Positions 7,129 to 27,393 of a stretch of 64,000 nucleotides of DNA are shown here, in pieces (positions within the stretch are counted from its first letter, which is position 1; every line of letters begins with the position of its first letter). The position numbers and the translations under genes are program-made. The stretch covers positions 33,825 through 97,824 of the forward strand of contig JBMNPN010000001.1 of assembly GCA_050943615.1 (NCBI GenBank), read 5' to 3'. A model generated the notes under the pieces. It was given only the letters and a program-made list of their open reading frames with translations, was not told the origin of the DNA and ran no database searches. Source of the stretch: Coriobacteriales bacterium (lineage in GTDB: Bacteria > Actinomycetota > Coriobacteriia > Coriobacteriales > QAMH01).

Positions 7129-7141
7129 GAAGCGCTGACCC

Positions 7142-8440
<1,299 letters not shown>

Positions 8441-8453
8441 AAGTGCTTTAATA

Positions 8454-8492
8454 GCTGCTGCGGCCTTTTTTCGGGTCGCGGCAGCTTTTTGT
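8454..8492 (+). terminator. intrinsic terminator after clpX
   Basis: 12-bp stem GCTGCTGCGGCC/GGTCGCGGCAGC (two G-U pairs), 8-nt loop, then TTTTTGT. Confidence 0.7.
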
Positions 8493-8525
8493 ATGTACAG
8501 CGCAGATTTACCGAAGGATACCGAC

Positions 8526-11207
8526 ATGCCAGATATGCCCAAGACCTACGAGCCCAAGGAAGTGGAGGAGCGCATCCTCAAAAAGTGGCTCGACGGCAAG
8601 TACTACAGCCGCTCCGAGGGGACGCGCGGCGACCGCACCGTCGTCATCCCGCCGCCCAACGTCACCGGCATGTTGCATATGGGCCATGCGCTCGACGATA
8701 CCATCCAGGATACCTACATCCGCTACTCGCGCATGCGCGGCTATTCCACGCGCTGGATTCTCGGTACCGACCATGCCGGCATCGCGACGCAGACCAAGGT
8801 CGACAAGCACCTGAAGGAACAGGGTATCTCCCGTCTGGAGATCGGGCGCGAAAAGTTCGTGGAAGAGTGCCAGAAGTGGCGTAAAGAGTACGGCGGCATC
8901 ATCGTCGAGCAGATCAAGCGCATGGGCTGCTCGGTCGATTTCGACGACGAGAAGTTCACGATGTCGCCCGAATACGCGCGCGCGGTGCGCAAGGTGTTCT
9001 GCGACTGGTACCACGACGGGCTCATCTACCGGGGTAAGCGCATCGTCAACTGGTGCCCGAGCTGCTCCACCGCCATCAGCGATGACGAGGCGGAGTACAA
9101 GGACGAGAAAGGCCACCTCTGGTACCTGCGCTATCCTCTTACCGAGCCGGTCGATGGCGTGGAGTACATCACCGTGGCGACGACCCGCCCCGAGACGATG
9201 CTCGGCGACACGGGCGTGGCCGTTTCCCCCGACGATCCCGACAAGGCAAAGTTCATCGGCAAGACGGTAAAGCTTCCCATCGTGGACCGCGAGATCCCGA
9301 TTTTCTCCGACTGGCACGTAGATGCGGGCTTTGGCACCGGCTTCGTCAAGGTGACGCCCGCGCACGACCCCAACGACTATGCGATGGGACAGACCCACGA
9401 TCTGCCGCAGATCAACATCTTCGACGAGCATGCCGTCGTCGTCGACGGCTACGGCGAGTTCTCCGGGCTCGACCGCGATGCCTGCCGCGAGCGCGTCGTC
9501 GCCTGGTTCGAGGAGCACGACCTGCTCGACCACGTCGAGGACATCGAGCACTCCGTCATGCACTGCTACCGCTGCGATTCCGCGCTCGAGCCCTGGCTGT
9601 CCGAACAGTGGTTCGTCGCGGTCGACAAGCTAAAGGGCCCGGCCACCGATGTCGTCGAGAACGGAGAGGTGACCTTTCACCCGAGCCGCTGGACACAGAC
9701 GTACATGACCTGGATGGAGAACCTCAAGGACTGGTGCATCAGCCGCCAGCTGTGGTGGGGACACCGCATCCCCGTCTTCTACTGCGACGAGTGCGGCTGG
9801 CAAGACGCGCTTCTCGAGGACACGGACACCTGCCCCAAGTGCGGCGCCCACGTCCATCAGGACGAAGACGTGCTCGACACCTGGTTCTCGAGCCAGCTGT
9901 GGACCTTCGCCACGCAGGGCTGGCCCGACCATCCCGAGCAGATGGAGGGGCACCATCCCACCAAGGTGCTCGTCACGGCGCGCGACATCATCGCGCTGTG
10001 GGTGGCGCGCATGGTCATGAGCTCGCTCTACTTCACGCACGAGATCCCGTTCCACGACGTCTTCATCTACGCGACGATCCTTGCCAAGGACGGTAGCCGC
10101 ATGTCCAAGTCCAAGGGCAACGGCGTCGACCCGATGGACCTCATCGAGAAGTACGGTGCCGATGCGATGCGCTACAACCTGCTCACGCTCGTCACCAACA
10201 ACCAGGACGTCAAGTTCGACGCCAACATCGACAAGAAGACCCACAAGCTCATCGACTCGCCGCGCACGGACGCGGCGCGCAACTTTGTCACCAAGATCTG
10301 GAACGCGAGCCGCTTCGTGCTCATGAACCTCGATGGCTACGAGCCCGGCGAGCCGGAGGCGGCGACCCGCGCCGATGCCTGGATCCTCTCGCGCCTGGCA
10401 AAGCTCACGCGCTCGGTCACCGACGGCATCGAGGAGTACCGCTTTGGCGATGTGGCCCGCGAGCTCTACGGCTTTTTCTGGAACGAGTTCTGCGACTGGT
10501 ACATCGAGCTGTGCAAGGACCGCCTCAACTCCGACGATGCGGAAGAGCGCGCCGTGGCGCAGCGAAATCTCGTCTTCGTGCTCGACACCGCGCTCAGGCT
10601 CCTGCATCCGGTCATGCCATTCGTGACCGAGGCGATCTGGGAGATCCTGCCGCTTGACGATGACGCACCCGCCTTGATGGTGGCCGCCTGGCCCGAACCC
10701 GACGAACTCGCCAAGTGGATCGACGAGCCCACCGAACAGGCGATTTCGCTTGCCACCAAGATGGTCGGCTCCGTGCGTTCCACGCGTGCGCGCTATGGTA
10801 TCAGCCCGAAAACCGAGCTTTCCGTCTCCTGCCGTGCGGCCGGCGCGGATGCCGACAAGGTCTCCGGCCTGCTCGAGCAGGAGCGTCCGCTCATCAGCTC
10901 GCTTGCGCGCCTGAGCTCCTTTGAGGTCCTGCCCGCCGATGCGGCAAAGCCCGCCGAGTCCGGTGTTGATCTGGTCGAGGGCATCGAGGTCTTCACGAAG
11001 CTTACCGGCCTGGTCGACTTCGAAGAGGAGCGCGCCCGTCTGGAAAAGCGCCGCGGCAAGGCGCAAAAGGAGCTCGCCAAGCTCGACAAGAAGCTCGACA
11101 ATGAGAACTTCCTCTCCAAGGCGGCACCCGAGGCAGTCGAGAAGGTGCGCGCCGACCATGCCGAGCTCGAACGCGAGCTCGCGCTCATCGCAGCCCAGCT
11201 CGACTAG
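8526..11207 (+). CDS. valS: valine--tRNA ligase
   Basis: [12 protein letters not shown] (HIGH) and KMSKS motifs, C-terminal coiled coil. ATG 8526 has GAAGGA upstream; track start 8493 lacks an SD. Confidence 0.95.
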
Positions 11208-12819: not shown

Positions 12820-13533
12820 ATGGCAGAAAGCGATTTTGCGAACCTCGATTTCGAGCGCGAGAAGCGCTGCGGGTTTCCCGAGGTGATCTATGCCCAGGGA
12901 AAGGAGCCCGTGCAGGTCGTTGCCATCGCCCGTGCGCTTGTGGAAAAGCACGGCATCGCCCTTGGGACGCGGGCAAAGGACGAGGACTTTGCGGCTCTGC
13001 AGCGCGCCTTCGACGATGTGCAATGCTTCGAGCGCTCCCGTGTCTTCTTTGTCGACCGGCGCGAGAATCCCGTTAGGGGCGAGACGATCGAGGAAGTGCT
13101 CTCTTGCGCAAACCGCGCAGAAGGGCAGGTCGTCGTGGCCTGTGCGGGGACGAGCGACCTTCCCGTGGCCGAGGAGGCGGCGCTCACCGCACGCATCATG
13201 GGCTCCGCCGTCCAGATGATCACCGACGTCGGCGTTGCCGGCGTGCACCGTGTCCTCGCCTATGAAGATGACCTGCGCGCAGCGCACGCCATCGTCGTGG
13301 CCGCGGGAATGGAAGGGGCCCTCGCCTCGCTCATCGGCGGGCTCGTGGACGTCCCTGTGATTGCCGTTCCCACGAGCGTGGGCTACGGTGCGAACTTCGG
13401 CGGCCTTGCGGCGCTGCTCGGCATGCTCAACTCCTGCGCGGGCGGGGTGAGCGTCGTCAATATCGACAACGGCTTTGGTGCCGGCCAGATCGCAGACCGC
13501 ATCAACCGCCCGCCCGAGCGTTTTCGTCAATGA
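12820..13533 (+). CDS. larB: LarB-type (PurE-like) nickel-pincer cofactor biosynthesis protein
   Basis: VVACAGTSDLPVAEEA and AAGMEGALASLIGGLVDVPVIAVPTSVGYG blocks typical of LarB/AIR-carboxylase-like proteins. TATAAT at 12778-12783 upstream. Confidence 0.75.
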   Translation: MAESDFANLDFEREKRCGFPEVIYAQGKEPVQVVAIARALVEKHGIALGTRAKDEDFAALQRAFDDVQCFERSRVFFVDRRENPVRGETIEEVLSCANRAEGQVVVACAGTSDLPVAEEAALTARIMGSAVQMITDVGVAGVHRVLAYEDDLRAAHAIVVAAGMEGALASLIGGLVDVPVIAVPTSVGYGANFGGLAALLGMLNSCAGGVSVVNIDNGFGAGQIADRINRPPERFRQ

Positions 13534-13558
13534 AGGGTTACAGAAAGAGGGAAGGCCC

Positions 13559-14149
13559 ATGTCAAAGAAGCTGCTGTACGTTGATGCGTGCGTGAACCGT
13601 GATACTTCGAGGACGGAAAGGCTCGCACAGGCGCTCCTCAAGCGCCTCCTTGAAACGGGCGACTACGAACTCGAGACGCTCGTTCTGGAAGACGTGGACG
13701 TCGAGCCGCTCGACGGGACGCGCCTCAACCGTCGCACGGCGGCAGTCGAGGCATCGGACTTCGGCGACCCGATTTTCGATTACGCAAAGCAGTTCGCCGC
13801 GGTAGACGAGGTCCTCATCGCCGCGCCCTACTGGGACTTCTCGTTTCCCGCAAAGCTCAAGGCCTACTTCGAGCTCCTCTGCGCGCAGGGCGTGACCTTC
13901 TACTACTCGCCCGAGGGCATCCCGACCGGGCTCTGCAAGGCAAAGCGCGTCTGGTACGTGACCACAGTCGGCGGCTATGCGGGCGAATACGATTACGGCC
14001 TGATGCAGGTCGAGGCGCTCTGCAAGCTCTACTTTGGCATCGACGACGTCAGGAGCTTTCGGGCCGAGGGGCTCGACATCATCACCAACGACGCCGACGC
14101 GATCATGGCAGAAGCGCTCGACGTGATCGCCAAGGCGGATCTGTCCTAG
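13559..14149 (+). CDS. flavodoxin-like fold NAD(P)H oxidoreductase (AzoR/ACP phosphodiesterase-like)
   Basis: MSKKLLYVDACVN...IAAPYWDFSFPAKLKAYF pattern; ATG 13559 after AGAGGGAAGG. Confidence 0.7.
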   Translation: MSKKLLYVDACVNRDTSRTERLAQALLKRLLETGDYELETLVLEDVDVEPLDGTRLNRRTAAVEASDFGDPIFDYAKQFAAVDEVLIAAPYWDFSFPAKLKAYFELLCAQGVTFYYSPEGIPTGLCKAKRVWYVTTVGGYAGEYDYGLMQVEALCKLYFGIDDVRSFRAEGLDIITNDADAIMAEALDVIAKADLS

Positions 14150-15198
14150 AGCCCGAAGAGGCGCTGGGCGTTCCCGCCGAGGATGAGGTCCTTGTCGGTC
14201 TCGGGGATATCGAGCGTCTCGATGGCCTCGACATCGGCGCGTCCATCGAAGACGGGAATCATCGTCCCGAAGACGAAATGGTCGGCACCGCACACGTCGA
14301 CGGCGCACTCGAGCTGGCGTTTTCCCCACGTGCCGGGATGGGTGATCTCGAAGAAGAGGTTGTTCTTCACGTAACGCTCGATGCGGTCTGCTGCCGAGGC
14401 GTCGAGGCGCTTGGTCTCTTCCGTCTGCCCGGCGCGCACGCGCGGGCGCAGCAGGCCGTCGAAGGCGAACCAGGCGCCGCCCATGAACCCGTGCACGAAC
14501 TTGAGGTTGGGGAAGTCCTCGAAGATGCCGCTGTAGAGCTCGAGGCTCACGGCCGTGATGGCGTCTATCTCGCGTCCAAGCTCGCGGCGGACGTTGTTGT
14601 ACTTGGTGATGGAGGCGTAGTCGACGGGCAGGGGCACGTTTCGCACCGCGACGGGAACGTTCTCGTCGTTGAGCACCTTGAGGAGCGGCCGGAACGCCTC
14701 GTTGTCCAGGTACCACTTTCCGTAATGTGCAGAGAGCTGCATGCCGCAAAATCCGAGCTCCTTGATGCAGCGCTCGAGTTCGTGAAGGCTCGCGCGGTCG
14801 CCCCAGGGCGGCACCGTTCCCATGGCGACGATGCGCCCGTTCGACTTCTCCACAAACTTGGCGTAGGCGTCGTTTGCCATCTCGCAGAGGTCCTGCGTCA
14901 TCCACTCGCCCCAGACGGGGATGCGGATGATGGCCTTCTCGATGCCGCAGGTGTCCATGGCGGCAAGCGTCGCCTCCAGGCTGTACTCGCCTTCCACGAG
15001 CGCGGCATTGCCAAAGCCGTCGGGTTGCTCGAGGGAGATCTGCCGGCGTCCGTCTTTCAGGGTGTTGACGTGCACGTGCGGACCGCCGTTTGCGGTCGGC
15101 ACGCAGCCGATCCACTTGTCGAAGGTGTCCGGGTCTGAAAATACCCGGTCGGGGACCTTGTCCATTGCCGTGTCGATGATGAGACGTTTGGAACTCAT
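14146..15198 (-). CDS. Amidohydrolase_2 (ACMSD/LigW-type) family protein with substituted metal ligands
   Basis: C-terminal signature GADHFVFGTMIPV...LILGGNAQRLFGL and a TIM-barrel-like pattern. ATG 15198 is 6 nt after AGAGGTG (track GTG 15207 is an alternative). Confidence 0.7.
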   Translation of the reverse strand: MSSKRLIIDTAMDKVPDRVFSDPDTFDKWIGCVPTANGGPHVHVNTLKDGRRQISLEQPDGFGNAALVEGEYSLEATLAAMDTCGIEKAIIRIPVWGEWMTQDLCEMANDAYAKFVEKSNGRIVAMGTVPPWGDRASLHELERCIKELGFCGMQLSAHYGKWYLDNEAFRPLLKVLNDENVPVAVRNVPLPVDYASITKYNNVRRELGREIDAITAVSLELYSGIFEDFPNLKFVHGFMGGAWFAFDGLLRPRVRAGQTEETKRLDASAADRIERYVKNNLFFEITHPGTWGKRQLECAVDVCGADHFVFGTMIPVFDGRADVEAIETLDIPETDKDLILGGNAQRLFGL

Positions 15199-15667
15199 GA
15201 AAACCACCTCTTACAAAAACGCCAGCTTAGAGGCTGAGTTCATGCAGCTGGGTTTGGCAAGACAGCTTGCGCCTCCCTTTACGTCGAGTATATCCCCGCG
15301 TGCGCCTTCGAGGTAAGCGGGCAGGGGGTTCGCCACGGGAGCGTCTTCTTTGGCGGATGCTATTGGCATCATCGGTTATTCGAAAAACATATAAATCAAT
15401 GGGTACAATTCTTGCTGATGAACCCCTCAGGTTGGGGACAGTTTGCAGCTCGGGATTCCCGACTCGTACGCGTTGTATGAGTATTTTCCCGTAACGAATT
15501 GTCGACGTTTCCTGTTTAATACCCCCCTGATGAGGTCTTTTCGCACGATGGGGTGCATAATCTGAGGCAGTGCGGGGCATCTACGTTTGTAGAACTCTCT
15601 CGGACAGTTTGTTTTACATGATCGGGCTACCCTAGGCCAGTGGCTCGAATCTCGTTCCCGCACATGT

Positions 15668-15711
15668 GCGCCCCGTAGGTCTCCCTCTTTCCTACGGGGC
15701 GTTTTCTATTT
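15668..15711 (+). terminator. orphan intrinsic terminator (no upstream plus-strand CDS)
   Basis: Stem GCGCCCCGTAGG/CCTACGGGGCGT, 11-nt loop, then TTTTCTATTT. Confidence 0.6.
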
Positions 15712-15750
15712 CCGCGCGCCAATCTCCCCGTGCGCTAGCCATTAGGTTTG

Positions 15751-15818
15751 CGAAAACGGACATCTGCAGAGAAAAAGTGCTCGAATCGCAGTTTTTTCGC
15801 TGCAGATGTCCGTTTTCG
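15751..15818. repeat. perfect 19-bp inverted repeat with 30-nt spacer upstream of rfbG
   Basis: CGAAAACGGACATCTGCAG (15751-15769) and its exact reverse complement CTGCAGATGTCCGTTTTCG (15800-15818). No U-tract on either side. Confidence 0.8.
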
Positions 15819-15892
15819 AAATCTGCTCGGGGGCGAGCTCGTGTGGGATAATGCGGTCGTTTAGTTGCAGCGACGTGGGTTGGAGTCATGCG

Positions 15893-16963
15893 ATGGGTTC
15901 TGCTTGGAAGTCCGGATTGCTCGATTCGTATCGCGGAAAGCGGGTGCTCGTCACGGGGCACACGGGCTTCAAGGGAAGCTGGCTTTCTTTGATTCTCGCC
16001 CATGCCGGAGCGCAGGTGACCGGGTACGCGCTCGAGGAACCGACCGACCCGAGCCTCTTCGAACTCGCCCGTATCGACGAGCTTGTCGACTCACGTACCG
16101 GCGATATCCGCGACTTCGACAAGCTCGCGTCCGTCTTTGCCGAAGCGAGACCCGAATACGTCTTTCACCTGGCCGCCCAGCCCATCGTGCGCATCGGCTA
16201 CGACGAGCCGCGCCGCACCTTCGAGACCAACGTCATGGGCACGGTCAACGTACTCGAGTGCGTGCGAAGGTCGCAGGGCGTGCGCTCGGTGCTCAACGTC
16301 ACCACTGACAAGGTCTATCTCAACGCCGACGAACCCGATCACGCGTTCACGGAAGACGAGCCGCTCGACGGTTTCGATCCCTACAGTAACTCCAAGTCCT
16401 GCTCGGAGCTCGTGACGCATTCCTATGCGAAGAGCTTCTCCTTGCCGCCCGTCTCCACGGCGCGTGCGGGAAACGTCATCGGCGGCGGGGACTTTGCTCC
16501 GGAACGCCTCGTGCCCGATTGCGTGCGCGCTACGCTTGCGGGGCGTCCCATCGGGGTGCGCAACCCCGCCTCCACGCGACCGTTCCAGCACGTGCTCGAG
16601 CCGCTCGGCGCCTACCTGCTCATCGCCGCCCGCCAAGGGGAGCGCCCCGAGCTTGCCGGTGCCTACAACGTGGGACCCGACCACAGGGATGCCGTCACGG
16701 CGCAGCGCCTCGTAGAACTCTGGTGCACGCTCTGGGGCGAGGGGGCAGACTGGGCCGATGCGAGCAATCCGGATGACCCCAAGCACGAGGCCGCCTTTCT
16801 CGAGCTCGACAACTCCAAGCTCAAGGACAGCTTCGGCTGGTCTGCAACCTGGGGCATCGACCAGGCGCTCGAAAGAACCGTCAGCTGGACGAAGGACTGG
16901 GCGGCGGGCGCTGACCCGCGGATGAGCATGCTCTCTCAGATTGAGGAGTTCTTCGCATCTTGA
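15893..16963 (+). CDS. rfbG: CDP-glucose 4,6-dehydratase
   Basis: KRVLVTGHTGFKGSWL Rossmann motif, YSNSK catalytic motif. ATG 15893 is 7 nt after GGAG; track start 15806 lies inside the inverted repeat. Confidence 0.9.
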   Translation: MGSAWKSGLLDSYRGKRVLVTGHTGFKGSWLSLILAHAGAQVTGYALEEPTDPSLFELARIDELVDSRTGDIRDFDKLASVFAEARPEYVFHLAAQPIVRIGYDEPRRTFETNVMGTVNVLECVRRSQGVRSVLNVTTDKVYLNADEPDHAFTEDEPLDGFDPYSNSKSCSELVTHSYAKSFSLPPVSTARAGNVIGGGDFAPERLVPDCVRATLAGRPIGVRNPASTRPFQHVLEPLGAYLLIAARQGERPELAGAYNVGPDHRDAVTAQRLVELWCTLWGEGADWADASNPDDPKHEAAFLELDNSKLKDSFGWSATWGIDQALERTVSWTKDWAAGADPRMSMLSQIEEFFAS

Positions 16964-17006
16964 AGCGGGGTTTTCGCGGTCTATAATCCTCGAACAGGAT
17001 CTTTCG

Positions 17007-17039
17007 AAGGCGCGCGATTTTCGCGGCGCCTTTTATTTG
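17007..17039 (+). terminator. weak hairpin plus T-run between rfbG and rfbH (possible attenuator)
   Basis: AAGGCGCGCGA-TTTT-CGCGGCGCCTT with one bulge, followed by TTTTATTT. Confidence 0.35.
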
Positions 17040-17067
17040 TCTGCATTGAAAAGCAAGGAGCGAGGAC

Positions 17068-18438
17068 ATGTTCGAGGGCATGAGCGAGACGGAGGCGCGC
17101 GCACAGATCTTGGAGGTGGTCGGCGCCTATTGCGACCGCTTCCACAACCAGCAGCCCGCTTGGCGCGAGGGCGATCGCATCAACTATGCGGGGCGCGTGT
17201 ACGACCGAGACGAGATGGTCAACCTGGTCGATGCCTCCCTCGAGTTCTGGCTCACGAGCGGGGAGTGGACCAGGCGCTTCGAAGAGGGGCTTGGCAGCTA
17301 CCTCGGGCTTCCCTTCGTGAGCTTCGTGAATTCGGGAAGCTCCGCGAACCTCCTTGCCTTCCAGGCGCTCACGAGCCCGCTTCTGGGCGAGCGCGCCATC
17401 AGGCCGGGAGACGAGGTCATAACGGTCGCCGCGGGCTTTCCCACGACGGTCTCGCCGCTCGTCAACTTCGGTGCCGTCCCCGTGTTCGTGGACGTCGAGA
17501 TCCCGAGCTACAACGTCGACGTCTCCCAGCTCGAGGCGGCGCTCTCCGAAAAGACCAGGGCCGTCATGCTCGCCCACACGCTCGGCAACCCCTTTGACGT
17601 CAAGGCCCTTCGCGCGTTTTGCGATGATCATGGCCTGTGGCTCGTCGAGGACAACTGCGATGCGCTGGGAAGCACCTACACGCTCGATGGTGAAAAGCGC
17701 CTTACCGGCACCTTCGGCGACATCGCGACGAGCAGCTTCTATCCGCCGCACCACATGACCACCGGCGAGGGCGGCGCCGTCTACACCGCAAACCCTGAGC
17801 TGCACAAGATCGTGCGCTCGCTGCGCGATTGGGGGCGCGACTGCAGCTGCCCGAGCGGGCATGACAACAGCTGCGGACACCGCTGGGACGGCCAGTACGG
17901 AATTCTCCCGAAAGGCTACGACCACAAGTACGTCTACTCCCACTTTGGCTACAACCTCAAGGCGACCGACCTACAGGCCGCCATCGGCTGCGCGCAGCTC
18001 GAGAAGCTCCCGTCCTTTACCGCGGCGCGCAAGCGCAACTGGGCGCATCTGCGCGCCGCGCTCGACGGCCTCTCCGACCGCCTCGTGCTGCCCGAGCCCG
18101 AACAGGATTCCGACCCGAGCTGGTTCGGCTTCTGCATTACCGCCGCCGAGGGCGCACCGGATGCCATGACGATCACGCGCCGTCTCGAGCAGCGCGGCAT
18201 CCAGACGCGCCGCCTGTTCGCCGGCAACCTCGTCAAGCATCCCTGCTTCGATGCGCTGCGCGCGGCAGGAGAGGGCTATCGCATTATCGACCCGGCGACG
18301 CAGGAGAGCTGCCTGAACGCAGACGTCCTCGCGCAGACCGAGAGGATCATGGAGAACACGTTCTGGGTCGGGGTCTACCCGGGCATGACCGACGACAAGC
18401 TCGATTTCATGGCACGCGCTATCAGAGAGGCGCTGTAG
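17068..18438 (+). CDS. rfbH: CDP-6-deoxy-L-threo-D-glycero-4-hexulose-3-dehydrase (E1, RfbH/DdhC-type, DegT family)
   Basis: DegT/DnrJ-type fold (GDEVITVAAGFPTT, FYPPHHMTTGEGG) plus the C-x-C-x7-C motif (CSCPSGHDNSC) characteristic of the Fe-S-containing E1 dehydrase. Confidence 0.85.
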   Translation: MFEGMSETEARAQILEVVGAYCDRFHNQQPAWREGDRINYAGRVYDRDEMVNLVDASLEFWLTSGEWTRRFEEGLGSYLGLPFVSFVNSGSSANLLAFQALTSPLLGERAIRPGDEVITVAAGFPTTVSPLVNFGAVPVFVDVEIPSYNVDVSQLEAALSEKTRAVMLAHTLGNPFDVKALRAFCDDHGLWLVEDNCDALGSTYTLDGEKRLTGTFGDIATSSFYPPHHMTTGEGGAVYTANPELHKIVRSLRDWGRDCSCPSGHDNSCGHRWDGQYGILPKGYDHKYVYSHFGYNLKATDLQAAIGCAQLEKLPSFTAARKRNWAHLRAALDGLSDRLVLPEPEQDSDPSWFGFCITAAEGAPDAMTITRRLEQRGIQTRRLFAGNLVKHPCFDALRAAGEGYRIIDPATQESCLNADVLAQTERIMENTFWVGVYPGMTDDKLDFMARAIREAL

Positions 18439-18467: not shown

Positions 18468-20351
18468 ATGAAGCAGTTCTTGAGGACATATTTCTTCGCG
18501 GTCGTGTTCTTCGCACTCATGGTGTTCCGCCTCTTTCTGGGTGTGGGCATGCCGCTTTGCGTGCACGCGCAGGCAAGCTATGACGATGTCTGGGCGCTGA
18601 ACGCCGCCGACAGCATCGAAAGCGGCCAGTGGCTCGGCTCCTACAGCGATGTCGCCCTTGTGAAGAGTGTCGGCTTTCCGCTCTTCCTCGCCTTCACGCA
18701 CGTCGACTTCTTTGGCTACACGCTCGTGCTGACGCTGCTCTGGATTCTGGCATCGGTCTTTTTCGTCTGTGCCGTGCGCCCGCTCTTTCGGGGGCGCTGG
18801 GTCTTCATGCTCGCCTTTGCCCTGCTGCTCTTCTGCCCGGTCAGCTTTGCGACGGACACCTTCATGCGGGTCTATCGCAACAGCATCACGGCAGCCCAGG
18901 TGCTCATCGTCTTCGGCGGCTTCCTGGGCATGTACGTGCGCGTGAAGGGCCTGAGGACGCCCGACCCCTTGCGCCTTTCGGGAAAGCCGCTCCTCCACTC
19001 GCTGCACTCGGTCTGGCTGCGCATGCTTCCCTGGGGAATCGGCGCGGCGCTCGGTCTTGCGTGGTTCAGCGTGACGCGCGAGGACAGCCTGTGGGTCTGG
19101 CCGTTCGCACTCGTCGCCATGGTGGTGCTGTGCGTGTGCGTCGTTCGCCGTCGTTTCATTGAAAAGCACCTCATGCCGGACGGGCCGTATGATTCGACGG
19201 CTCTGGAGCACCGCTATCCAGCCGGCTTCTTGAGCCGCATCGGGACCGTCGCTGCCCTCATCGTGGCGATCTCCCCGCTTCTTGCGACGGGCATCACCGT
19301 CGGCGTCATCAGCTCGGTCAACCAGGCAAATTACGGCGTTTCCACGGTGGCAGAGATCAACTCGGGAAACTTCTCGCGCCTCGTGCGCGACCTGTATGCC
19401 ATCGCACCCGATGAAGAGCAGGAAAACCAGCGTGTCGCCTGCTCTCACGAAAGCCTCGTGCAGGCTTGCGAGCAGAGCCCGACGCTGCAATCGATTTCGT
19501 CGTATCTGGAGCGCGAGTTCTACAGCTGGGGCGATCGGATTGACGGAGACCCCGGGGACGGCCAGGTGAACGGCGGGGAGTTTCCCTGGGTCATCAGGCG
19601 CGCGGCAAATGACGCGGGCTGGTTCTCCTCTGCCACGGAGGCTGATGAGCAGTTCGGGAAAGCGGCCGACGAGCTCGAGGCCGCGTTCTCGTCAGGCGCC
19701 CTTGCGCAACGCGGCACTTGGCCCTCTTCGCTCATGACTCCCTGGGATAATCGATACGCCGGAGATTTCTGCGGCGCGCTTGCTGAGACGCTCTGGCAGA
19801 TGGCCTCGTATGCGGACGTGACCTGCGACCCCTATCCCGCTCAGGGAAGCGACGAGGGCATCTCGTACTTCGAGCAGCGCACCGATGATGTCGCCTACGA
19901 GCAGGGTGGCCCCACGCCCATCTGCTGCACGGTCGGGACGGGCATCATCTGGATCTACCGCATCCTGGGACCGGTCATCGCAGTTGTCGGCCTCATCTGC
20001 TTCATCCGGCTGATCATGCGAGCGATTCAGGCCCGCCGCCAGGCGCGGAAGGCCGAAGCCGGAGGGCGTGATTCAGCGTGCTTCATGCGCTGGTATCTTG
20101 GACCGCTCGTGCTGATGCTGTTCGGCATCGGGCTTTCCGTGGTCTGCCTTGCCTGCGGGCTTGCCTACACGCGCGTCTCGTCTTTCGTGCCGATCAGCTT
20201 CTATTATTACGGGAGTGGGGGCTACCCGCTCGTGCTCGCGTTCTGCTGTCTTGCCTTTGCGGGTATTGGGCGCGCCGGCTGGAACTATTCGAAAGACCGA
20301 CTCGAGCACAGTGACGAGAAGGACCGACAGCGGGAGGGCGAGGCCGAATGA
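18468..20351 (+). CDS. large polytopic membrane protein, possible GT-C-like glycosyltransferase/polymerase
   Basis: Many N-terminal TMs, YDD in the first predicted external loop, a central soluble segment of roughly 180 aa, three C-terminal TMs. Stop overlaps the next start (ATGA). Confidence 0.55.
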   Translation: MKQFLRTYFFAVVFFALMVFRLFLGVGMPLCVHAQASYDDVWALNAADSIESGQWLGSYSDVALVKSVGFPLFLAFTHVDFFGYTLVLTLLWILASVFFVCAVRPLFRGRWVFMLAFALLLFCPVSFATDTFMRVYRNSITAAQVLIVFGGFLGMYVRVKGLRTPDPLRLSGKPLLHSLHSVWLRMLPWGIGAALGLAWFSVTREDSLWVWPFALVAMVVLCVCVVRRRFIEKHLMPDGPYDSTALEHRYPAGFLSRIGTVAALIVAISPLLATGITVGVISSVNQANYGVSTVAEINSGNFSRLVRDLYAIAPDEEQENQRVACSHESLVQACEQSPTLQSISSYLEREFYSWGDRIDGDPGDGQVNGGEFPWVIRRAANDAGWFSSATEADEQFGKAADELEAAFSSGALAQRGTWPSSLMTPWDNRYAGDFCGALAETLWQMASYADVTCDPYPAQGSDEGISYFEQRTDDVAYEQGGPTPICCTVGTGIIWIYRILGPVIAVVGLICFIRLIMRAIQARRQARKAEAGGRDSACFMRWYLGPLVLMLFGIGLSVVCLACGLAYTRVSSFVPISFYYYGSGGYPLVLAFCCLAFAGIGRAGWNYSKDRLEHSDEKDRQREGEAE

Positions 20352-21304
20352 GCAACAGGCCACGTGTCCTCGTGCTGATGACGACCTACAACGGGCAGGC
20401 GTTCGTGCACGACCAGCTCAAGAGCATATTCAACCAGCGGGGCGTGGACGTCACGCTGCGGGTCTGCGATGACTGCTCCACGGACAACACCTTCCGCATC
20501 CTCGAGACCTGGGCTGCAAAGCATGACAACATGCAGGTTCTCAGGAACTCCGAGAACAAAGGCGTCGTGCGCAACGTGATGGACCTCGTCTACTCGGCCC
20601 CGGCGGATGAGTACGACTTCTTCGCCATCGCCGACCAGGACGACGTGTGGCATCCCAACAAGCTGCTCGAGGCGAGCCGGCGCATCTTCTCGAACACCTC
20701 GCGCCCCGAGCTCTACTACGCCGATGTTCGCAACATCGATGAGCGCGGCAGGACGATCGGCTTCGAGTACCGCCCCTACAAGGTGTGCGCCGAACATCCC
20801 GCGAGCCTGCTGCTTGTGCAGAACTGGTGCCTGGGCTGCACGCTTCTCATGAACGGCGCGCTGGTGAAGCTCCTGCGCCAGCATCCGGTCTACGACTTCG
20901 GCCGCATGTACGATGCCTGGATTCACGCCGTGGCGCTTTTCTGCGGTGGCTTTGTCTATCCCGACCTCGACCATCACTACGTGAACCGCCGCATCACCGG
21001 GCACAACACGGTGGGCATCATGAACGAGGAGCGCAGCACGGGCTATCTTGTGAAGAAGGGGACGCACTGGCTGTTTCTGGGCGAGCCCGAGGTGTCCAAG
21101 AAGCACACCGAGTTCGCGGCGGCACTGCTGCGCGAGTACAAGGACGACATGCTGCCCGAGACGGCGCGCCTGGTCGAGGACGTCGCCCTGCGGCAGGTCT
21201 CCTTCAAGTCGCGGTGGCGGCTGTTCAGGCGCAAGGACATCGTCATGCCCACCAAGACCAGGACCCGCTGGTTGCGCTGGATGGTGCTTCTCAAGCGGTT
21301 CTAG
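20348..21304 (+). CDS. glycosyltransferase family 2
   Basis: VLVLMTTYNG, CDDCSTDNT, ADQDDVW motifs. Confidence 0.85.
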   Translation: MSNRPRVLVLMTTYNGQAFVHDQLKSIFNQRGVDVTLRVCDDCSTDNTFRILETWAAKHDNMQVLRNSENKGVVRNVMDLVYSAPADEYDFFAIADQDDVWHPNKLLEASRRIFSNTSRPELYYADVRNIDERGRTIGFEYRPYKVCAEHPASLLLVQNWCLGCTLLMNGALVKLLRQHPVYDFGRMYDAWIHAVALFCGGFVYPDLDHHYVNRRITGHNTVGIMNEERSTGYLVKKGTHWLFLGEPEVSKKHTEFAAALLREYKDDMLPETARLVEDVALRQVSFKSRWRLFRRKDIVMPTKTRTRWLRWMVLLKRF

Positions 21305-21310: not shown

Positions 21311-21379
21311 GCATATATGCAGGTCATCGGGCCAAAGTGGGGACTCTCTTTGGCTTTCTATCTGCATATCCGCAGGTCA
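21311..21379 (+). repeat. two copies of a 16-nt direct repeat in an intra-locus gap
   Basis: GCATATATGCAGGTCA (21311-21326) and GCATATCCGCAGGTCA (21364-21379), 14/16 identical, starts 53 bp apart. Confidence 0.6.
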
Positions 21380-21543
21380 AAGCCGTGTTATTTCCGCACA
21401 GGTTTTTTATCGCCGCTTACCGTCTGCATCGCCGCTGCTGCGGGTTCTTTCGTCTGGCGCGCGCTAAGCTTGAGACATCGAATAGCTACTCGCTTGCCTT
21501 CTCGAAACGTAGTATCCGCTCATCGTTTGAAAGCTCTGTTCAC

Positions 21544-22698
21544 GTGAAAGTTCTCTTCGTGCTCTCTTTGGGGAAGCTCGACGGGGGCGCTGCTCTCGTC
21601 TGGATGAACTTGCTCGACGGCCTGCGCACGCGCGGGGTCGAGCCTTATGTCGTCATCCCCAAAGACGCCGATGGGTCGCTCACATCCGAGCTCGATCGTC
21701 GGAATATCCCCTGGCGCGCGATTTTCTACACCTGGTGGGTCACGAGCAGCTCGAATGAGACCACGCCCCTACGGCGCGTGCGGCGCATGGGCGGCAAGCT
21801 CATCAACCGCAGCACCGACCGTCAAATCGGCGCCTACATGGAAGAATGCGGCATCGAGCTCGTCTACATCTGCGATGGCACGATCACGGCAGGGCTCCAC
21901 GAGGCAAAGCGTCGTGGGATTCCCGTCGTCTGGCATATCCACGAGTTCATCCGCGACACTCCCGGCGGCGTCAAGTTCAGCGACCCGGAAGCGCACGTGG
22001 GATCGACGCTTGCCTTGGCCGATGCCATCATCACGGTCACGCGCTCCATCAAAACCGACCTGCGCACGCGCTTTCCGATGCTCCAGAACATCCATGTCGT
22101 CTACAACGGCATCCCGAAGTCCCGCATCTTCGACAAGCCCGTACGGCCCGAGGGCAAGACGGTCGTCTTCACGCTGGTGGGCAGAATCGATGAGAACAAG
22201 GGCCAGGAAGACGCGATCCGCGCGTTCATCCGCATCGCCCCGAAGTACCCAAATGCCGTGCTGCGCATCGTCGGGACGGGGGACCCAAAGCTCACCGAGC
22301 GTCTCAAGGTACTGGCGGATCGTGGCGCTGCACACGGGTGCATTGAGTTTCTGGGCTATCGCAAGGACATCCCGATTATTTGGCGCGACACCGACATCGC
22401 GCTCAACTGCTCGTATTCGGAAGGCTGCAGCATGGTGCTCTGCGAGGCCATGTCGAGCGGGTGCCTGATGCTGTGCTCGACGGCGGAGAGCAACGTCGAG
22501 CTCATCGATGGCAAGTACGGCGTGCTCTACGAGCGCACCAAGGTCGCCGATCTCGCCGAAAAGATGGCATGGGTCATCGACCATCCCGATGAATGCCAGA
22601 AGCTCGCGCTGGCAGGCAAGCGCCGCGCTCAGCGCATCTTCGACCTCGACCGGCAGATCGACCTGGTCTATCAGATTTTCACCGAGGTACTCAAATGA
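21544..22698 (+). CDS. glycosyltransferase family 4 (GT-B)
   Basis: GTG start giving (M)KVLFVLSLGKLDGGA; C-terminal E-x7-E region SEGCSMVLCEAMSSG. The track extension back to 20785 overlaps the previous gene. Confidence 0.85.
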   Translation: MKVLFVLSLGKLDGGAALVWMNLLDGLRTRGVEPYVVIPKDADGSLTSELDRRNIPWRAIFYTWWVTSSSNETTPLRRVRRMGGKLINRSTDRQIGAYMEECGIELVYICDGTITAGLHEAKRRGIPVVWHIHEFIRDTPGGVKFSDPEAHVGSTLALADAIITVTRSIKTDLRTRFPMLQNIHVVYNGIPKSRIFDKPVRPEGKTVVFTLVGRIDENKGQEDAIRAFIRIAPKYPNAVLRIVGTGDPKLTERLKVLADRGAAHGCIEFLGYRKDIPIIWRDTDIALNCSYSEGCSMVLCEAMSSGCLMLCSTAESNVELIDGKYGVLYERTKVADLAEKMAWVIDHPDECQKLALAGKRRAQRIFDLDRQIDLVYQIFTEVLK

Positions 22699-23687
22699 CA
22701 GCGGGGCCGTTCACTGTCAAAGAACAGGACCCGGAACTTGTGAGCATCGTCATCCCGGTCCACAATGCGGATGCTTATATAGGGAATTGTCTAGAATGTG
22801 TGCTTTCTCAGACGCATGACAGGCTCCAGGTCCTGCTCATCGATGACGGTTCGACTGACAAGAGCGTCCAGATCGTGGACGACGCCGCGGCGCGCGATGG
22901 GCGCGTTGCTGCAATTCACCAGCAAAACGCCGGCCCCGCCGCCGCGCGTAACGCGGGACTCGACCAGGTCAAAGGCGCCTGGGTCATGTTCGTCGATGCC
23001 GATGACGAGATCGAGGCAGACTACGTGGAGCAGATGCTCACCGTTGCCCGGGAGGACAGGGCGGACATCGTGGTGAGCGACTGCATGATCGAGGAGGATG
23101 GCGTGCGCAGCCGTTTTGGCATGATCGTTCCCAACTGCTGCTACGAGGGCGCTGCGGAAGTCTATGCCGACTTCATGCGTGACCACATCCCCTGGAGTCT
23201 CTGGGGCAAGCTCTATAGAGGTGAACTCTTCTCGGACCTGAGATTCTCCGAGGAAAACTACATCGCGGAAGATCTCGAGGCAAACGCGCGGCTCTTTGCG
23301 AAAAAGGGCATCGTGGTCTCGACGACCGATGGGGCGGGGTACTGCTATCACGTCGTCGCAGGTTCGATCGACCACAGCTTCGATGAGCGGTATCTGCGCC
23401 AGTTCTCTGTTTTCGATGACGTGACGTCGCGCGCCGTCGAAGCCGGCCTGGTCGCGCCCGACTTGGCCGCGGTTTTCTATGAGCGGCGTGTGCTCAACTG
23501 CTTTGGCAAGGCGGTAAAGGCGGACGCGCTCGACAAACGGGTCTCCCGTGCGTTTGCCGATGCCATCGCCTCCTATCGGGCAGACGCCATCGCGTGCCCG
23601 GAGGCCCCCGATTGGCTCGTGCGCCAGCTGCGCGTCTCGCGCTTCGGGATGAGCGCTCTTGCTGCTCTCTATAGAGCGCGCGGATAG
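22695..23687 (+). CDS. glycosyltransferase family 2
   Basis: VSIVIPVHNA, IDDGSTD, FVDADDEI; ATGA overlap with the previous stop. Confidence 0.85.
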   Translation: MTAGPFTVKEQDPELVSIVIPVHNADAYIGNCLECVLSQTHDRLQVLLIDDGSTDKSVQIVDDAAARDGRVAAIHQQNAGPAAARNAGLDQVKGAWVMFVDADDEIEADYVEQMLTVAREDRADIVVSDCMIEEDGVRSRFGMIVPNCCYEGAAEVYADFMRDHIPWSLWGKLYRGELFSDLRFSEENYIAEDLEANARLFAKKGIVVSTTDGAGYCYHVVAGSIDHSFDERYLRQFSVFDDVTSRAVEAGLVAPDLAAVFYERRVLNCFGKAVKADALDKRVSRAFADAIASYRADAIACPEAPDWLVRQLRVSRFGMSALAALYRARG

Positions 23688-23776: not shown

Positions 23777-24610
23777 ATGGTCAAGACGGTCACATCTCTA
23801 GAACAGCTGCACCAGCTCGAGCTGGAGGCGCTCTGCGCGGTTGAACGTGCGGCACGTGCCTGCGGCGTCCGCTGGTTTCTGCACGGCGGCACGCTGCTCG
23901 GCGCCATCCGCGAAGGCGGACCGCTCGCCTGGGACGACGACGTCGATATCGCCATGTTGCGCGATGACTTCGACCGCTTCTGCGCCCGTGCTCCGCGTCT
24001 GCTCGATTCGCGCTTCAAGTTGCAGTTCCCGGCGGACTTTCCCGAGTTCTTCGATTTTCTCCCGCGCGTCGTCGATACGGCCTGGCGCTTCGAGGCGGCA
24101 CGCGATGACGCTGCCGGGTTCGGAGGGCGCATCGAGCATCCGGCCATCGACATCTTCGTCTTCGAGCCGGCCTGCGTCTCGCCCGAGCGCGACCGCCTGC
24201 AATCGGCGCTTCTCCAGGCAAACTACGCCGCCGCGCTCGGGTTTCGTCCCGGGTTCTCCCACGAGGGATTCTCGGGCATCGAGCTTGCCGCATCCTACGT
24301 GCTGCCCGTCTGCGGGAAGGCCATCGGGCTTTCGGAGCTCATCGCCCAACGCGAGCGTCTGGCGAGCTGGGGGGACAGCCCGCGCATCCTGCGCATCGTA
24401 AACGAGCTTCCGACCTATGCGGACCTGCGCTGGAACAAGCGCTGGTATCTTCCCAGAGAAGACGGCAGCGAGCGGTATGCATCGTTTTCGGGGGTGCCGC
24501 TTCCCGTGCCCGTCAATGCCGAAGCGGATCTGGAAAACGTCTACGGCCCCGACTGGATGACGCCGCCGCCCCCTGAAAAGCGCGTCCCCCAGCACGCGAG
24601 CCTGTCGTAG
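23777..24610 (+). CDS. licD: LicD family phosphotransferase
   Basis: WFLHGGTLLGAIREGGPLAWDDDVDIAM, the canonical LicD/FKTN nucleotidyltransferase-fold motif. Confidence 0.85.
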   Translation: MVKTVTSLEQLHQLELEALCAVERAARACGVRWFLHGGTLLGAIREGGPLAWDDDVDIAMLRDDFDRFCARAPRLLDSRFKLQFPADFPEFFDFLPRVVDTAWRFEAARDDAAGFGGRIEHPAIDIFVFEPACVSPERDRLQSALLQANYAAALGFRPGFSHEGFSGIELAASYVLPVCGKAIGLSELIAQRERLASWGDSPRILRIVNELPTYADLRWNKRWYLPREDGSERYASFSGVPLPVPVNAEADLENVYGPDWMTPPPPEKRVPQHASLS

Positions 24611-24624: not shown

Positions 24625-25929
24625 ATGGCATTCGAGGTCCATTCGGTCAAGTACAACTACTTCATGAACCTGCTGCTCACGGGCTGCTCGATCCTGTTTC
24701 CGCTCATCACGTTTCCGCTGGTGAGCCGTGCTCTTTTGGCGGATGCCTATGGTCTCGTGAACTTCGCGAGCTCCACGGCGAGCTGGCTTTCTCTCATCGC
24801 GATGCTCGGCGTCAACCGCTACGGCACCCGCGAGATTGCCCGCGTGCGCGACAACCCCGCCGAGCTCGCCCGCACAACCCGCGAGATATTCGCGGTGACG
24901 CTCGCCTCGACGCTCATCGTCTTTGCCTGCTTCATCGTGAGCATCTTTCTCGTGGAGCGCTTCTCGCAAGACCGGACGCTCTTTTTTATGAACAGCATCA
25001 CCGTCATCTGCAACACGCTCGGCGTCTCGTGGTTCTTCCAGGGCATCGAGCAGTATCGCTACATCACGGTGCGCGGCGTGATCGTTCAGGCGGTCTGCCT
25101 GTTAGGCGTCATCTTCCTCGTGCACAGCCCGGGCGACTACCTCGTCTACGCCGCACTGCTCATCGCCTCGAGCGCCGTTGCCAACCTCGTGAACTTCTTT
25201 TACATGCTGCGCCTGATGCGAGAGGCGGATGCCGAGGCGTACTACACGCGCGCTCGGCTCGAGCCCAAGCGCCACATAAGGCCGCTTCTCGTCTTCTTCC
25301 TGATCGTGGCGGCCATCTCCATCTACACGATGCTCGACACCGTCATGCTCGGCTTTCTGTCGACCAACGAGCAGGTCGGCTTCTACTCGTCTGCCATCGC
25401 GGTGAAAAACGCCCTGGTGGCGCTCGTTTCGGCGCTTTCGAACGTGCTGCTGCCGCGCACGGCGAACCTCTATGCGCACGGCGAGCACCTCAAGTTCAAG
25501 AAGCTCGTCAGAAAGGCCGTGCGCGTCGTGCTGCTGCTGAGCGTCCCGCTGTCCGTGGTGGTGGCAGTGCTCGCCACGCCGCTCATGACCTGGTACGCGG
25601 GTGCCGCCTTTGCCGGTGCCGGGCCCGCGCTTTCGGTGGTTGCGCTCGCGGTGATCCCCATCGGCCTTTCGGTGATCTTCTGCGACGAGGTGCTGATTCA
25701 GATCGGGCGCGAGGCGACGTGCACGTGGATCTACCTTGCGGCCGCCATCATCGACTTCGTGGGAAACCTCGTCCTCATCCCCATCCTCGGCGCGCTCGGC
25801 GCTGCGATCTCCACCCTGTTCGTCGAGGTGCTCATCACCTTGATCGAGTTCATCTTGGTGCGCCCCTACCTGTGGGGCGGCGCGGACGGCTATGGCCGTG
25901 ACCTGCCGCCGTATCGGCCGCGCGAGTAA
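24625..25929 (+). CDS. wzx: oligosaccharide flippase (Wzx/MOP superfamily)
   Basis: About 12 TMs, N-terminus YNYFMNLLLTGCSILFPLITFPLVSRAL typical of polysaccharide biosynthesis (PST) transporters. Confidence 0.8.
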   Translation: MAFEVHSVKYNYFMNLLLTGCSILFPLITFPLVSRALLADAYGLVNFASSTASWLSLIAMLGVNRYGTREIARVRDNPAELARTTREIFAVTLASTLIVFACFIVSIFLVERFSQDRTLFFMNSITVICNTLGVSWFFQGIEQYRYITVRGVIVQAVCLLGVIFLVHSPGDYLVYAALLIASSAVANLVNFFYMLRLMREADAEAYYTRARLEPKRHIRPLLVFFLIVAAISIYTMLDTVMLGFLSTNEQVGFYSSAIAVKNALVALVSALSNVLLPRTANLYAHGEHLKFKKLVRKAVRVVLLLSVPLSVVVAVLATPLMTWYAGAAFAGAGPALSVVALAVIPIGLSVIFCDEVLIQIGREATCTWIYLAAAIIDFVGNLVLIPILGALGAAISTLFVEVLITLIEFILVRPYLWGGADGYGRDLPPYRPRE

Positions 25930-27372: not shown

Positions 27373-27393
27373 TGTGATATCGCCTCTCAATGT

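Follow-up and report, generated by a model that had tools for sequence, protein, structure and literature searches.

The sequence examined, referred to below as the window, is a stretch of 64,000 nucleotides (nt; 62% G+C) lying inside a 102-kb metagenome contig (JBMNPN010000001.1) of a Coriobacteriales bacterium. It carries two adjacent genes, rfbG and rfbH, that encode the core of a cytidine diphosphate (CDP)-3,6-dideoxyhexose pathway, namely CDP-glucose 4,6-dehydratase (Eod) and CDP-4-keto-6-deoxyglucose 3-dehydrase (E1). Genes for a thiamine diphosphate (ThDP)-dependent carboligase, termed the TPP enzyme, and for an extended short-chain dehydrogenase/reductase (SDR) lie 17 kb downstream, both where the initial annotation had placed them. 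The same region encodes glycosyltransferases (GTs), a LicD-family protein, a flippase, an aldolase and a phosphatase (Table 1). From sequence comparisons, the split locus probably builds a carbon-branched 3,6-dideoxyhexose.

Table 1. Features of the split glycan locus and its insertion in the window (TM, transmembrane; PMP, pyridoxamine 5'-phosphate; KDPG, 2-keto-3-deoxy-6-phosphogluconate; KHG, 2-keto-4-hydroxyglutarate).
Feature	Position	Strand	Evidence or remark
Conserved non-coding leader upstream of rfbG	15545-15715	+	~170 nt conserved with L099, in the 680-nt spacer
rfbG, CDP-glucose 4,6-dehydratase (Eod)	15893-16963	+	TIGR02622, 394.8 bits (curated equivalog cut-off 278.45)
rfbH, E1, PMP/[2Fe-2S] CDP-4-keto-6-deoxyglucose 3-dehydrase	17068-18438	+	NF011936, 670.7 bits (cut-off 423)
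Membrane protein, 627 aa	18468-20351	+	~9 TM segments and a ~200-residue loop; no Pfam or NCBIfam match
GT2a glycosyltransferase	20348-21304	+	PF00535; 55% identity with the product encoded next to rfbH, on its 3' side, in L010 (Coriobacteriaceae)
GT4 glycosyltransferase, start uncertain	21337-22698	+	Gene call and Pfam Glyco_transf_4/Glycos_transf_1 in L001
GT2b glycosyltransferase	22695-23687	+	PF00535, 1.7e-35; gene call in L001
LicD-family phosphotransferase	23777-24610	+	PF04991, 8e-19
Wzx-type (Polysacc_synt) flippase	24625-25929	+	PF01943 and MurJ; ~9 TM segments
Insertion, 8.3 kb, not part of the pathway	26035-34354		No counterpart in L093, L095, L097
Paralogous 7-bladed lactonase-like beta-propellers	26035-27372, 27394-28785	-	Within insertion
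Membrane-anchored LuxR-type regulator	~28900-30294	+	Within insertion
LysR regulator	30347-31288	-	Within insertion
Molybdopterin oxidoreductase and 4Fe-4S protein	31453-33945, 33737-34354	+	Within insertion
TIM-barrel protein	34542-35600	+	Named "dioxygenase" or "beta/alpha-barrel" elsewhere; just upstream of the TPP gene in the window, L093 and L097
YerE-like ThDP-dependent carboligase (TPP enzyme)	35692-37560	+	PF02776, PF00205, PF02775 (TPP_enzyme_N/M/C)
HAD-IIA (NagD/PNPase-type) sugar phosphatase	37573-38397	-	TIGR01460, 128 bits (cut-off 100); PDB 3QGM, 8e-34
Eda-type class I KDPG/KHG aldolase	38360-39040	-	TIGR01182, 173 bits (cut-off 156); PDB 1WA3, 1e-41
Extended SDR, predicted YerF-like side-chain ketoreductase	39120-40109	+	PF01370; motifs GVTGMIG and YGKAK
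GtrB/ArnC/PgfS-type GT2 (GT2c)	40096-41160	+	Predicted polyprenyl-phosphate glycosyltransferase
PMT_2-family GT-C membrane glycosyltransferase	41157-42719	+	PF13231, 32 bits (cut-off 26); 8 TM segments; same position in L093

RfbG and RfbH both score above the NCBI curated cut-offs, which bears out the names they had been given, and their adjacency is the normal operon order rather than a chance arrangement. RfbG displays the extended-SDR Rossmann motif GHTGFKG at residue 22 and the catalytic Y-x3-K, as YSNSK, at residue 164. Residues 5-452 of RfbH align with the Yersinia E1 structure (PDB code 3BCX; 480 bits). The Fe-S motif CSCPSGHDNSC, already singled out in the initial annotation, occupies residues 259-269 (nt 17842-17874), and Cys197, Cys259, Cys261 and Cys269 align with C193, C251, C253 and C261 of Yersinia E1, the four-cysteine [2Fe-2S] motif C-x57-C-x-C-x7-C. 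His228, within the sequence YPPHH, aligns with the catalytic His220 that replaces the aminotransferase lysine. The catalytic histidine and the four cluster cysteines are kept in 81-83 of 83 relatives.

The TPP enzyme presents a canonical ThDP motif, GDG at residue 471 followed by VINNQG. Its best NCBIfam models are acetolactate synthases (ALS), yet the score against TIGR00118 is only 308.6 bits (cut-off 538.35), and all 25 ThDP-enzyme models listed for it, mostly ALS but also Xsc and Gcl, score below their cut-offs. The best match among solved structures is JanthE (PDB code 8RPH; 405 bits over the full length, 37.7% identity), followed by PpYerE (PDB code 5AHK; 216 bits) and plant acetohydroxyacid synthase (AHAS; ~205 bits). 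JanthE, from Janthinobacterium sp. HH01 (8RPH, 8RPI and 8RPJ), is a YerE-like enzyme that takes ketones and long α-keto acids in vitro (PMC12188165). It carries an unusual CDG in place of GDG. As its physiological substrates are undefined, the match is no proof of function. A neighbour-joining tree (100 bootstraps, rooted on Gcl) was built from 34 sequences, comprising the window enzyme, 27 RfbH-linked enzymes, JanthE, PpYerE, E. coli IlvB, IlvI and Gcl, and Arabidopsis AHAS. In this tree, which has few outgroups and does not include YpYerE, ErwE or MMAR_2332, all RfbH-linked TPP enzymes group with JanthE and PpYerE in one clade that excludes IlvB, IlvI and AHAS (bootstrap 99/100). No gene for the AHAS small subunit (IlvN/IlvH) is adjacent to the TPP gene, which is flanked by those for the TIM-barrel protein and the HAD phosphatase. 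Because the clade is separate and the scores lie below the cut-offs, a grouping with IlvB or Xsc is not found, and the phylogenetic comparison sides with the earlier suggestion of a YerE-like enzyme. The protein is 57-59% identical to the products of TPP genes adjoining rfbH in other genomes; clade membership and synteny predict that it attaches an acyl branch to C4 of CDP-4-keto-3,6-dideoxyglucose. Krug and co-workers are said to have predicted, in 2024, over 200 enzymes of the YerE-like kind.

The company kept by rfbH was followed through 185,579 species-representative genomes, where a scan with RfbH confirmed 589 relatives. From these the best 80 were taken as loci (numbered with the prefix L; RfbH 62-69% identical to that of the window, with mechanical calling of open reading frames, ORFs). 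They belong mostly to Lachnospiraceae, Oribacterium, Selenomonas and Oscillospiraceae, with a few from Eggerthellaceae, Coriobacteriaceae or Atopobiaceae. A TPP gene of the same clade lies downstream of rfbH in 28 of the 80 loci, mostly within 5 kb and typically at 0-4.5 kb on the same strand. It is usually followed by an SDR gene and then by a GtrB-type GT2 gene, orthologous to those of the window. Three loci (L016, L006 and L008) display the order rfbF-rfbG-rfbH-TPP-SDR-GT2; in L016, where it is free of gaps, the TPP, SDR and GT2 proteins are 57%, 43% and 63% identical to their window counterparts. Beside the TPP gene, an aldolase gene is also present in 13 of the 28 TPP loci (nine HMGL/BphI-like, two HpcH/HpaI-like and two Eda-like), often accompanied by a HAD phosphatase, a PfkB kinase or a methyltransferase, and one locus, L027, has the order rfbH-Eda-TPP-HAD, the same trio as the window. 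RfbH identity was tried as a predictor of cassette type and proved uninformative, TPP-linked, LicD-linked and other loci all standing at ~64%. At gene level the cassette is common in anaerobic Firmicutes and Coriobacteriia, and the initial expectation that a branched dideoxyhexose would be unusual in a Gram-positive anaerobe does not hold there. No literature joining rfbH with Eggerthella was found.

A second cassette, rfbF-rfbG-rfbH-LicD-GtrB-like GT2, with LicD directly after rfbH, was observed in 21 loci from Oribacterium, Lachnospiraceae and Succinatimonas (L020, L028, L033, L035, L037, L039-L041, L043, L044, L048, L051, L052, L054-L056, L061, L068, L070, L078 and L079; for example L035, 7993-13374). 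It contains no TPP gene, and none of the queried SDR types is adjacent. Since the LicD family uses CDP-activated donors, LicD may transfer dideoxyhexose-1-phosphate from the CDP-sugar.

Closer relatives were reached by following homologs of the TIM-barrel protein and of RfbG to longer contigs (L093 and L095, both on one 152-kb ENA scaffold, L094, L096 and L097). They present 65-82% nucleotide identity to the window, and the window genes are contiguous and collinear in them. The 5' part of their order is GtrA (minus strand), RfbF, RfbG, RfbH, a membrane protein, GT2, GT4, GT2, LicD and Wzx. An acyltransferase (not in all), the TIM barrel, TPP, HAD (minus), Eda (minus), SDR, GT2, PMT_2 and a penicillin-binding protein (PBP, minus) follow. 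Homology between window and relatives begins at 15929, just inside rfbG. In L093, L095 and L097 the TIM-barrel and TPP genes come within 0.2-1.3 kb after Wzx; because both halves are contiguous in the relatives, with no counterpart of the intervening 8.3 kb, that segment of the window is an insertion. It resembles the regulator-plus-reductase modules typical of Eggerthellaceae, placed here within a glycan locus. Judged by this gene order, the rfbG-rfbH group and the TPP group are evidently the halves of one accessory cell-envelope glycan locus. The contiguity, together with the clade and the linkage in 28 of 80 loci, supports the proposal of the initial annotation that the distant TPP enzyme and SDR are YerE/YerF-type partners of Eod and E1.

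The TIM-barrel gene was considered as a member of the donor pathway and rejected, its homologs being widespread barrel proteins of Eggerthellaceae and one further locus, L092, having the gene (1093-2100) directly between an AIRC-domain gene and a PBP gene, with no glycan genes. Among 8000 candidates scored, 2419 were homologs at E ≤ 1e-5. Homologs named from Slackia, Adlercreutzia and Eggerthellaceae are 55-61% identical, which, together with the LuxR-type membrane regulator and the molybdopterin oxidoreductase, suggests a Coriobacteriia/Eggerthellaceae-like host. It is probably a backbone gene with glycan genes on both sides, and because L092 has it without any of them, the whole glycan locus is accessory.

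Between the TPP and SDR genes, on the opposite strand, lie the genes for the HAD-IIA phosphatase and the Eda-type aldolase. The phosphatase keeps its position in L093 and is 43% identical to the HAD protein adjoining the TPP gene in L027; the aldolase is also kept in L093, and Eda-like genes occur near rfbH or TPP genes in L027, L058, L013 and L069. The SDR is 43-45% identical to those following the TPP gene in L016, L031, L046 and L077, and its orthologs stand directly after that gene in L016, L031, L046, L057 and L093. In YerE/YerF and ErwE/ErwF, acyl addition to C4 is followed by reduction of the side-chain ketone (PMC9306805, PMC12247030), and an aldolase adjoining the ThDP enzyme, in a scheme of aldolase, ThDP enzyme and reductase, signals a donor longer than pyruvate (PMC9306805). 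The aldolase and phosphatase genes between TPP and SDR fit the published scheme and suggest by analogy a branch longer than that of yersiniose, with Eda predicted to make the α-keto-acid donor. The product is probably not yersiniose itself. In the weakest step of the model, a KDPG- or 2-keto-3-deoxygluconate (KDG)-like donor and a polyhydroxyalkyl branch are suggested.

A counterpart of the 627-aa membrane protein, with 508-579 residues, immediately follows RfbH in L095 (12441-14180), L096 and L097; the protein could be a polymerase, a ligase or a novel enzyme of GT-C-like type. GT2c matches GtrB (PDB code 5EKP; 144 bits, residues 47-347) and ArnC (PDB code 9HWJ; 105 bits) over their full length. 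Its best NCBIfam model is PgfS, its C-terminal TM segments lie at residues 270-307 and 309-338, and it is 58-66% identical to the GT2 proteins encoded after TPP-SDR in other phyla. The PMT_2 GT-C protein, predicted to move the sugar from a lipid carrier to a surface acceptor, is followed in the window by a class A PBP gene. In 44 of the 80 loci, rfbH has a GtrB-type GT2 gene no more than 10 kb away, which hints that CDP-dideoxyhexoses are commonly handed to a polyprenyl-phosphate carrier in Gram-positive anaerobes. A large multi-TM protein is encoded in 22 of 23 TPP-plus-GT2 loci. GtrA, present in 12 of the 80 as well as in L095/L096, has no counterpart in the window.

The initial annotation had found neither the cytidylyltransferase RfbF nor the E3 reductase (RfbI) in the window, and the searches of the window made here agree. 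All ORFs with support from third-codon-position G+C (GC3) were scanned with Pfam, and none contained an NTP_transferase or Fer2/FNR domain. Searches of the window by tblastn with Salmonella RfbF and RfbI (from L083), with three actinobacterial RfbF proteins and with GtrA gave nothing better than E ~0.5, and a relaxed run at E = 100 gave noise only. No rfbF or gtrA remnant was detected within the window. RfbF and E3 are also missing from the gene lists of contig positions 26689-102036 (~75 kb of the 102 kb). A scan of metagenome contigs with the RfbF of the nearest relative gave no contig of the window's own sample, JGI 3300064082, among its matches, and a protein search for a same-sample RfbF gave no high-identity JGI match, its one candidate, P0351, coming from other samples.

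These two absences are to be read differently. E3 is absent, at E < 1, from all 80 related RfbH loci (and from the gene lists of L093/L095); its absence is therefore normal for the clade. RfbF occurs in 55 of the 80, and its gene is unlinked in eight of the 42 loci having at least 8 kb on both flanks. The nearest relatives carry GtrA (minus strand) and RfbF immediately upstream of rfbG, their RfbF scoring 409.8 bits against TIGR02623 (cut-off 300.25) and being 60% identical to Salmonella RfbF; in the window, their place is taken by 680 nt of non-coding sequence and a gene for an amidohydrolase. The lack of rfbF is a peculiarity of this lineage. A cytidylyltransferase encoded elsewhere is the favoured source of CDP-glucose, its gene not being found in the ~75 kb of contig.

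Two further loci, L098 (a 95%-identical variant) and the more distant L099, share the upstream sequence or the junction of the window. The L099 junction consists of an amidohydrolase gene (minus strand), a 640-nt spacer and rfbG, and lacks rfbF as the window does. In the aligned segments (L099 396-4219; window 14146-18054) amino-acid identity is 93% for the amidohydrolase, 73% for RfbG and 81% for RfbH. This sharp drop at the junction suggests that recombination has exchanged alleles of the glycan locus, in the manner of O-antigen loci. As different rfb alleles sit at the same rfbF-less junction, the locus is read as a maintained, diversifying surface-glycan locus. All locus ORFs are intact, and the genes are under purifying selection: dN/dS (Nei-Gojobori) is 0.18 for rfbG and 0.11 for rfbH against L098, 0.27 and 0.29 against L099, and 0.17-0.31 for TPP, SDR, GT2c, Eda and HAD against L093. 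Non-functional rfbG and rfbH, which would have spoken against the pathway, are not what these values and the kept catalytic residues indicate. Because dN/dS is low, the ORFs are intact, the junction is maintained and rfbF is sometimes unlinked, a functional pathway fed by a cytidylyltransferase elsewhere is favoured.

The conserved leader upstream of rfbG contains a -10-like sequence, GGGTGCATAAT, and has a multi-branched predicted fold (-58.8 kcal/mol, z = -3.57). It ends in a GC-rich terminator-like hairpin (15669-15701) followed by a T-run; L099 retains this hairpin, one of its pairs having changed in a compensatory way. A search of the leader with Rfam gave no family, only sub-threshold chance matches. 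It may be a leader, attenuator or small RNA ahead of the glycan operon, a candidate regulatory RNA putatively belonging to the system. In the same spacer lies a 29-nt inverted repeat (15748-15776/15793-15821; 93% complementary) that is not conserved in L099.

The pathway that best explains the locus would begin with RfbG, which, as its equivalog model implies, would oxidise and dehydrate CDP-D-glucose to CDP-4-keto-6-deoxy-D-glucose, and continue with RfbH, which would remove the 3-hydroxyl group with PMP and the [2Fe-2S] cluster. RfbH would draw its electrons from a general ferredoxin or flavodoxin reductase in place of a dedicated E3. SpnQ of the spinosyn forosamine pathway offers a precedent, an E1-type PMP/[2Fe-2S] 3-dehydrase without dedicated E3 that is reduced by general ferredoxin/flavodoxin reductase pairs (PMC8987622); its substrate is a dTDP-2,6-dideoxy sugar of secondary metabolism, whereas the window RfbH is far closer to the CDP-specific E1. 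Eda and the HAD phosphatase would supply a functionalised α-keto acid, or pyruvate might be used directly. The YerE-like enzyme would decarboxylate the donor and attach the acyl group to C4 of CDP-4-keto-3,6-dideoxyglucose, the SDR would reduce the side-chain ketone as YerF does, GT2c would place the product on undecaprenyl phosphate, and its transfer outside the membrane would fall to the PMT_2 GT-C enzyme. The acceptor could be a glycopolymer or a protein, perhaps the polymer made by GT2a, GT4, GT2b, LicD and Wzx.

A more specific version of this scheme is tentative and rather doubtful. It holds that the product is a branched 3,6-dideoxyhexose not described so far, with a polyhydroxyalkyl chain at C4 derived from an Eda-made KDPG/KDG-type acid trimmed by the HAD phosphatase, that the GtrB-type enzyme loads the CDP-sugar so that a cell-wall polymer or surface protein can be decorated outside the cytoplasm, that E1 works free of E3, reduced by the general ferredoxin or flavodoxin system of the anaerobe, and that this is a general Gram-positive route. 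If true, no earlier case would be on record of a GtrB-family enzyme passing a CDP-activated donor to undecaprenyl phosphate, and Gram-positive gut anaerobes would have a general way of displaying dideoxyhexoses that has gone unrecognised, in line with the GtrB-like gene in 44 of 80 loci.

The locus belongs to a known kind of system, Eod/E1 with a YerE-like enzyme and a YerF-like reductase, sometimes with an aldolase. Like the yersiniose A pathway of Yersinia pseudotuberculosis (DdhA-D/AscA-D with YerE and YerF), it has Eod, E1 with the same catalytic histidine and Fe-S cysteines, a ThDP carboligase of the YerE-like clade with an adjoining NAD(P)H-dependent SDR, and the same predicted acceptor, CDP-4-keto-3,6-dideoxy-D-glucose. 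It differs in lacking E3 (AscD/RfbI) and the cytidylyltransferase, in a TPP enzyme 28.5% identical to the YerE homolog PpYerE, in the aldolase and phosphatase, so that pyruvate may not be the donor, and in delivery by a GtrB-like GT2 and a GT-C enzyme, rather than O-unit assembly, in a Gram-positive-type actinobacterium without lipopolysaccharide (LPS). The clusters for erwiniose (ErwE/F/I/J), caryophyllose (MMAR_2331-2333) and gastriose (MygE/F/I) likewise combine an aldolase, a YerE-like enzyme and a reductase near CDP-sugar genes, but their aldolases are class II (BphI/HMGL-like or HpaI/citrate-lyase-like) in contrast with the class I Eda type of the window (PMC9306805). The pairing of Eda with a HAD-IIA phosphatase further sets the window apart, implying a phosphorylated intermediate, and the related Firmicutes loci resemble those clusters in using HMGL- or HpcH-like aldolases. 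As in GtrA/GtrB/GtrC, ArnC/ArnT and PgfS/PgfM1 of S. mutans, a GT2 with two C-terminal TM helices precedes a PMT_2 GT-C enzyme, with GtrA present in the relatives and missing in the window; the known GtrB, ArnC and PgfS systems use UDP-sugars, whereas the only activated sugar encoded near GT2c is the CDP-dideoxyhexose. AHAS (IlvB/IlvI/IlvG) shares the three-domain ThDP/FAD fold family with the TPP enzyme, ALS being its best NCBIfam models, but the latter scores about half the cut-offs, lacks a small subunit and ilv context, and falls in a separate clade. Four differences from every characterised example remain, namely the lack of E3, the class I aldolase with phosphatase, the GtrB/GT-C delivery and the host group.

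Several points weigh against a branched dideoxyhexose. The assignment of the TPP enzyme as YerE-like draws on JanthE (natural substrate undefined), the tree and synteny, and its identity to PpYerE is barely above the 27.4% shared with AHAS. The SDR, predicted to be YerF-like, could be no more than a 4-ketoreductase. Eda and HAD genes stand beside TPP only in L027, L058, L093/L094 and the window, and could be ordinary catabolic genes; if the TPP enzyme, too, were an acetolactate synthase or another carboligase of central metabolism, its proximity to rfbH at 17 kb would be due to chance. The ALS models as best hits (308 bits), the common catabolic nature of Eda and HAD-IIA enzymes and the unrelated genes separating both groups in the window would fit such a view, which is nevertheless extremely unlikely given ALS, Xsc and Gcl scores far below cut-offs, no adjacent small regulatory subunit, a clade apart from IlvB, IlvI and AHAS (99/100), linkage to rfbH in 28 genomes and contiguity in the nearest relatives. 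The locus might instead make a plain 3,6-dideoxyhexose of the paratose or abequose type, the SDR acting as C4 ketoreductase, GTs or LicD installing the sugar and the TPP enzyme serving elsewhere. Six loci (L009, L024, L071, L076, L081 and L082) have an SDR 32-39% identical to that of the window and no TPP gene, the 21 LicD-cassette loci lack TPP as well, and the SDR offers no testable YerF-specific feature to set it apart. The window SDR is, however, nearer to SDRs encoded directly behind TPP genes (43-45%), TPP, SDR and GT2c occur together in ~20 loci and in the contiguous relatives, and the TPP enzyme falls in a ketone-accepting, YerE-like clade, all of which makes a plain sugar very unlikely.

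Other points against a branched product concern the supply of substrate and electrons, as well as delivery. No E3 or other dedicated reductase was identified for RfbH, and we know of no GtrB-family enzyme that uses a CDP-sugar. In the closest relatives rfbF and gtrA flank rfbG, yet both are missing here, and the pathway in this strain may be without its substrate. The locus would then be a decaying remnant, with rfbF and gtrA gone from the 5' end and the insertion dividing it, in which RfbG and RfbH are idle and no branched sugar is made. The start of homology only at 15929, next to the place of GtrA and RfbF in the nearest relatives, speaks for decay, as do the lack of an rfbF or gtrA remnant in the window and the searches that found no same-sample rfbF. 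Against it stand the intact ORFs and kept catalytic residues, the dN/dS values (0.11-0.18 against L098, 0.27-0.29 against L099), the rfbF-less junction that L099 shares with a different rfbG/rfbH allele, which points to a stable, maintained architecture, and the unlinked rfbF of eight of the 42 full-flank loci. Decay is accordingly considered unlikely.

Yersiniose, erwiniose, caryophyllose and other acyl-branched dideoxyhexoses are surface sugars that are immunodominant and in some cases also immunomodulatory; most of what is known of them comes from the LPS of Gram-negative bacteria and the lipooligosaccharides of mycobacteria. If the branched-sugar reading is right, the same enzymatic logic would operate in about one third of the sampled RfbH loci from gut and rumen Firmicutes and Coriobacteriia, coupled there to lipid-carrier/GT-C delivery and without E3, which predicts unusual surface epitopes in abundant commensals. 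These loci would also provide candidates for ketone-accepting ThDP biocatalysts, for E1 reduction in strict anaerobes and for CDP-sugar use by GtrB-type enzymes. For this contig, the outcome is a well-explained accessory glycan locus and no new principle.

Upstream of rfbG, the window (12820-15198) encodes an aminoimidazole ribonucleotide (AIR)-carboxylase-domain protein of 237 aa, with the domain in its C-terminal half, a Flavodoxin_2 protein and an Amidohydro_2 protein (minus strand). The Flavodoxin_2/FMN-reductase-like gene (13559-14149) lies 1.7 kb upstream of rfbG and is also found in L099; its product is conceivable as an electron donor to E1, and nothing ties it to E1. In L095, positions 1-9004, upstream of rfbF, form a large cell-wall polysaccharide region with rmlA, rmlB, rmlC, glf (UDP-galactopyranose mutase), a HipA-like kinase and a CTP_transf_3-HAD fusion with a DUF6716 protein, which is missing from the window lineage at this position. 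Two genes adjoin the glycan locus in the window and are conserved in L092, one (44896-46521, minus strand) for a surface protein in which ChW repeats are joined to a YkuD L,D-transpeptidase domain and one (46679-47698) for a BspA-type leucine-rich-repeat protein.

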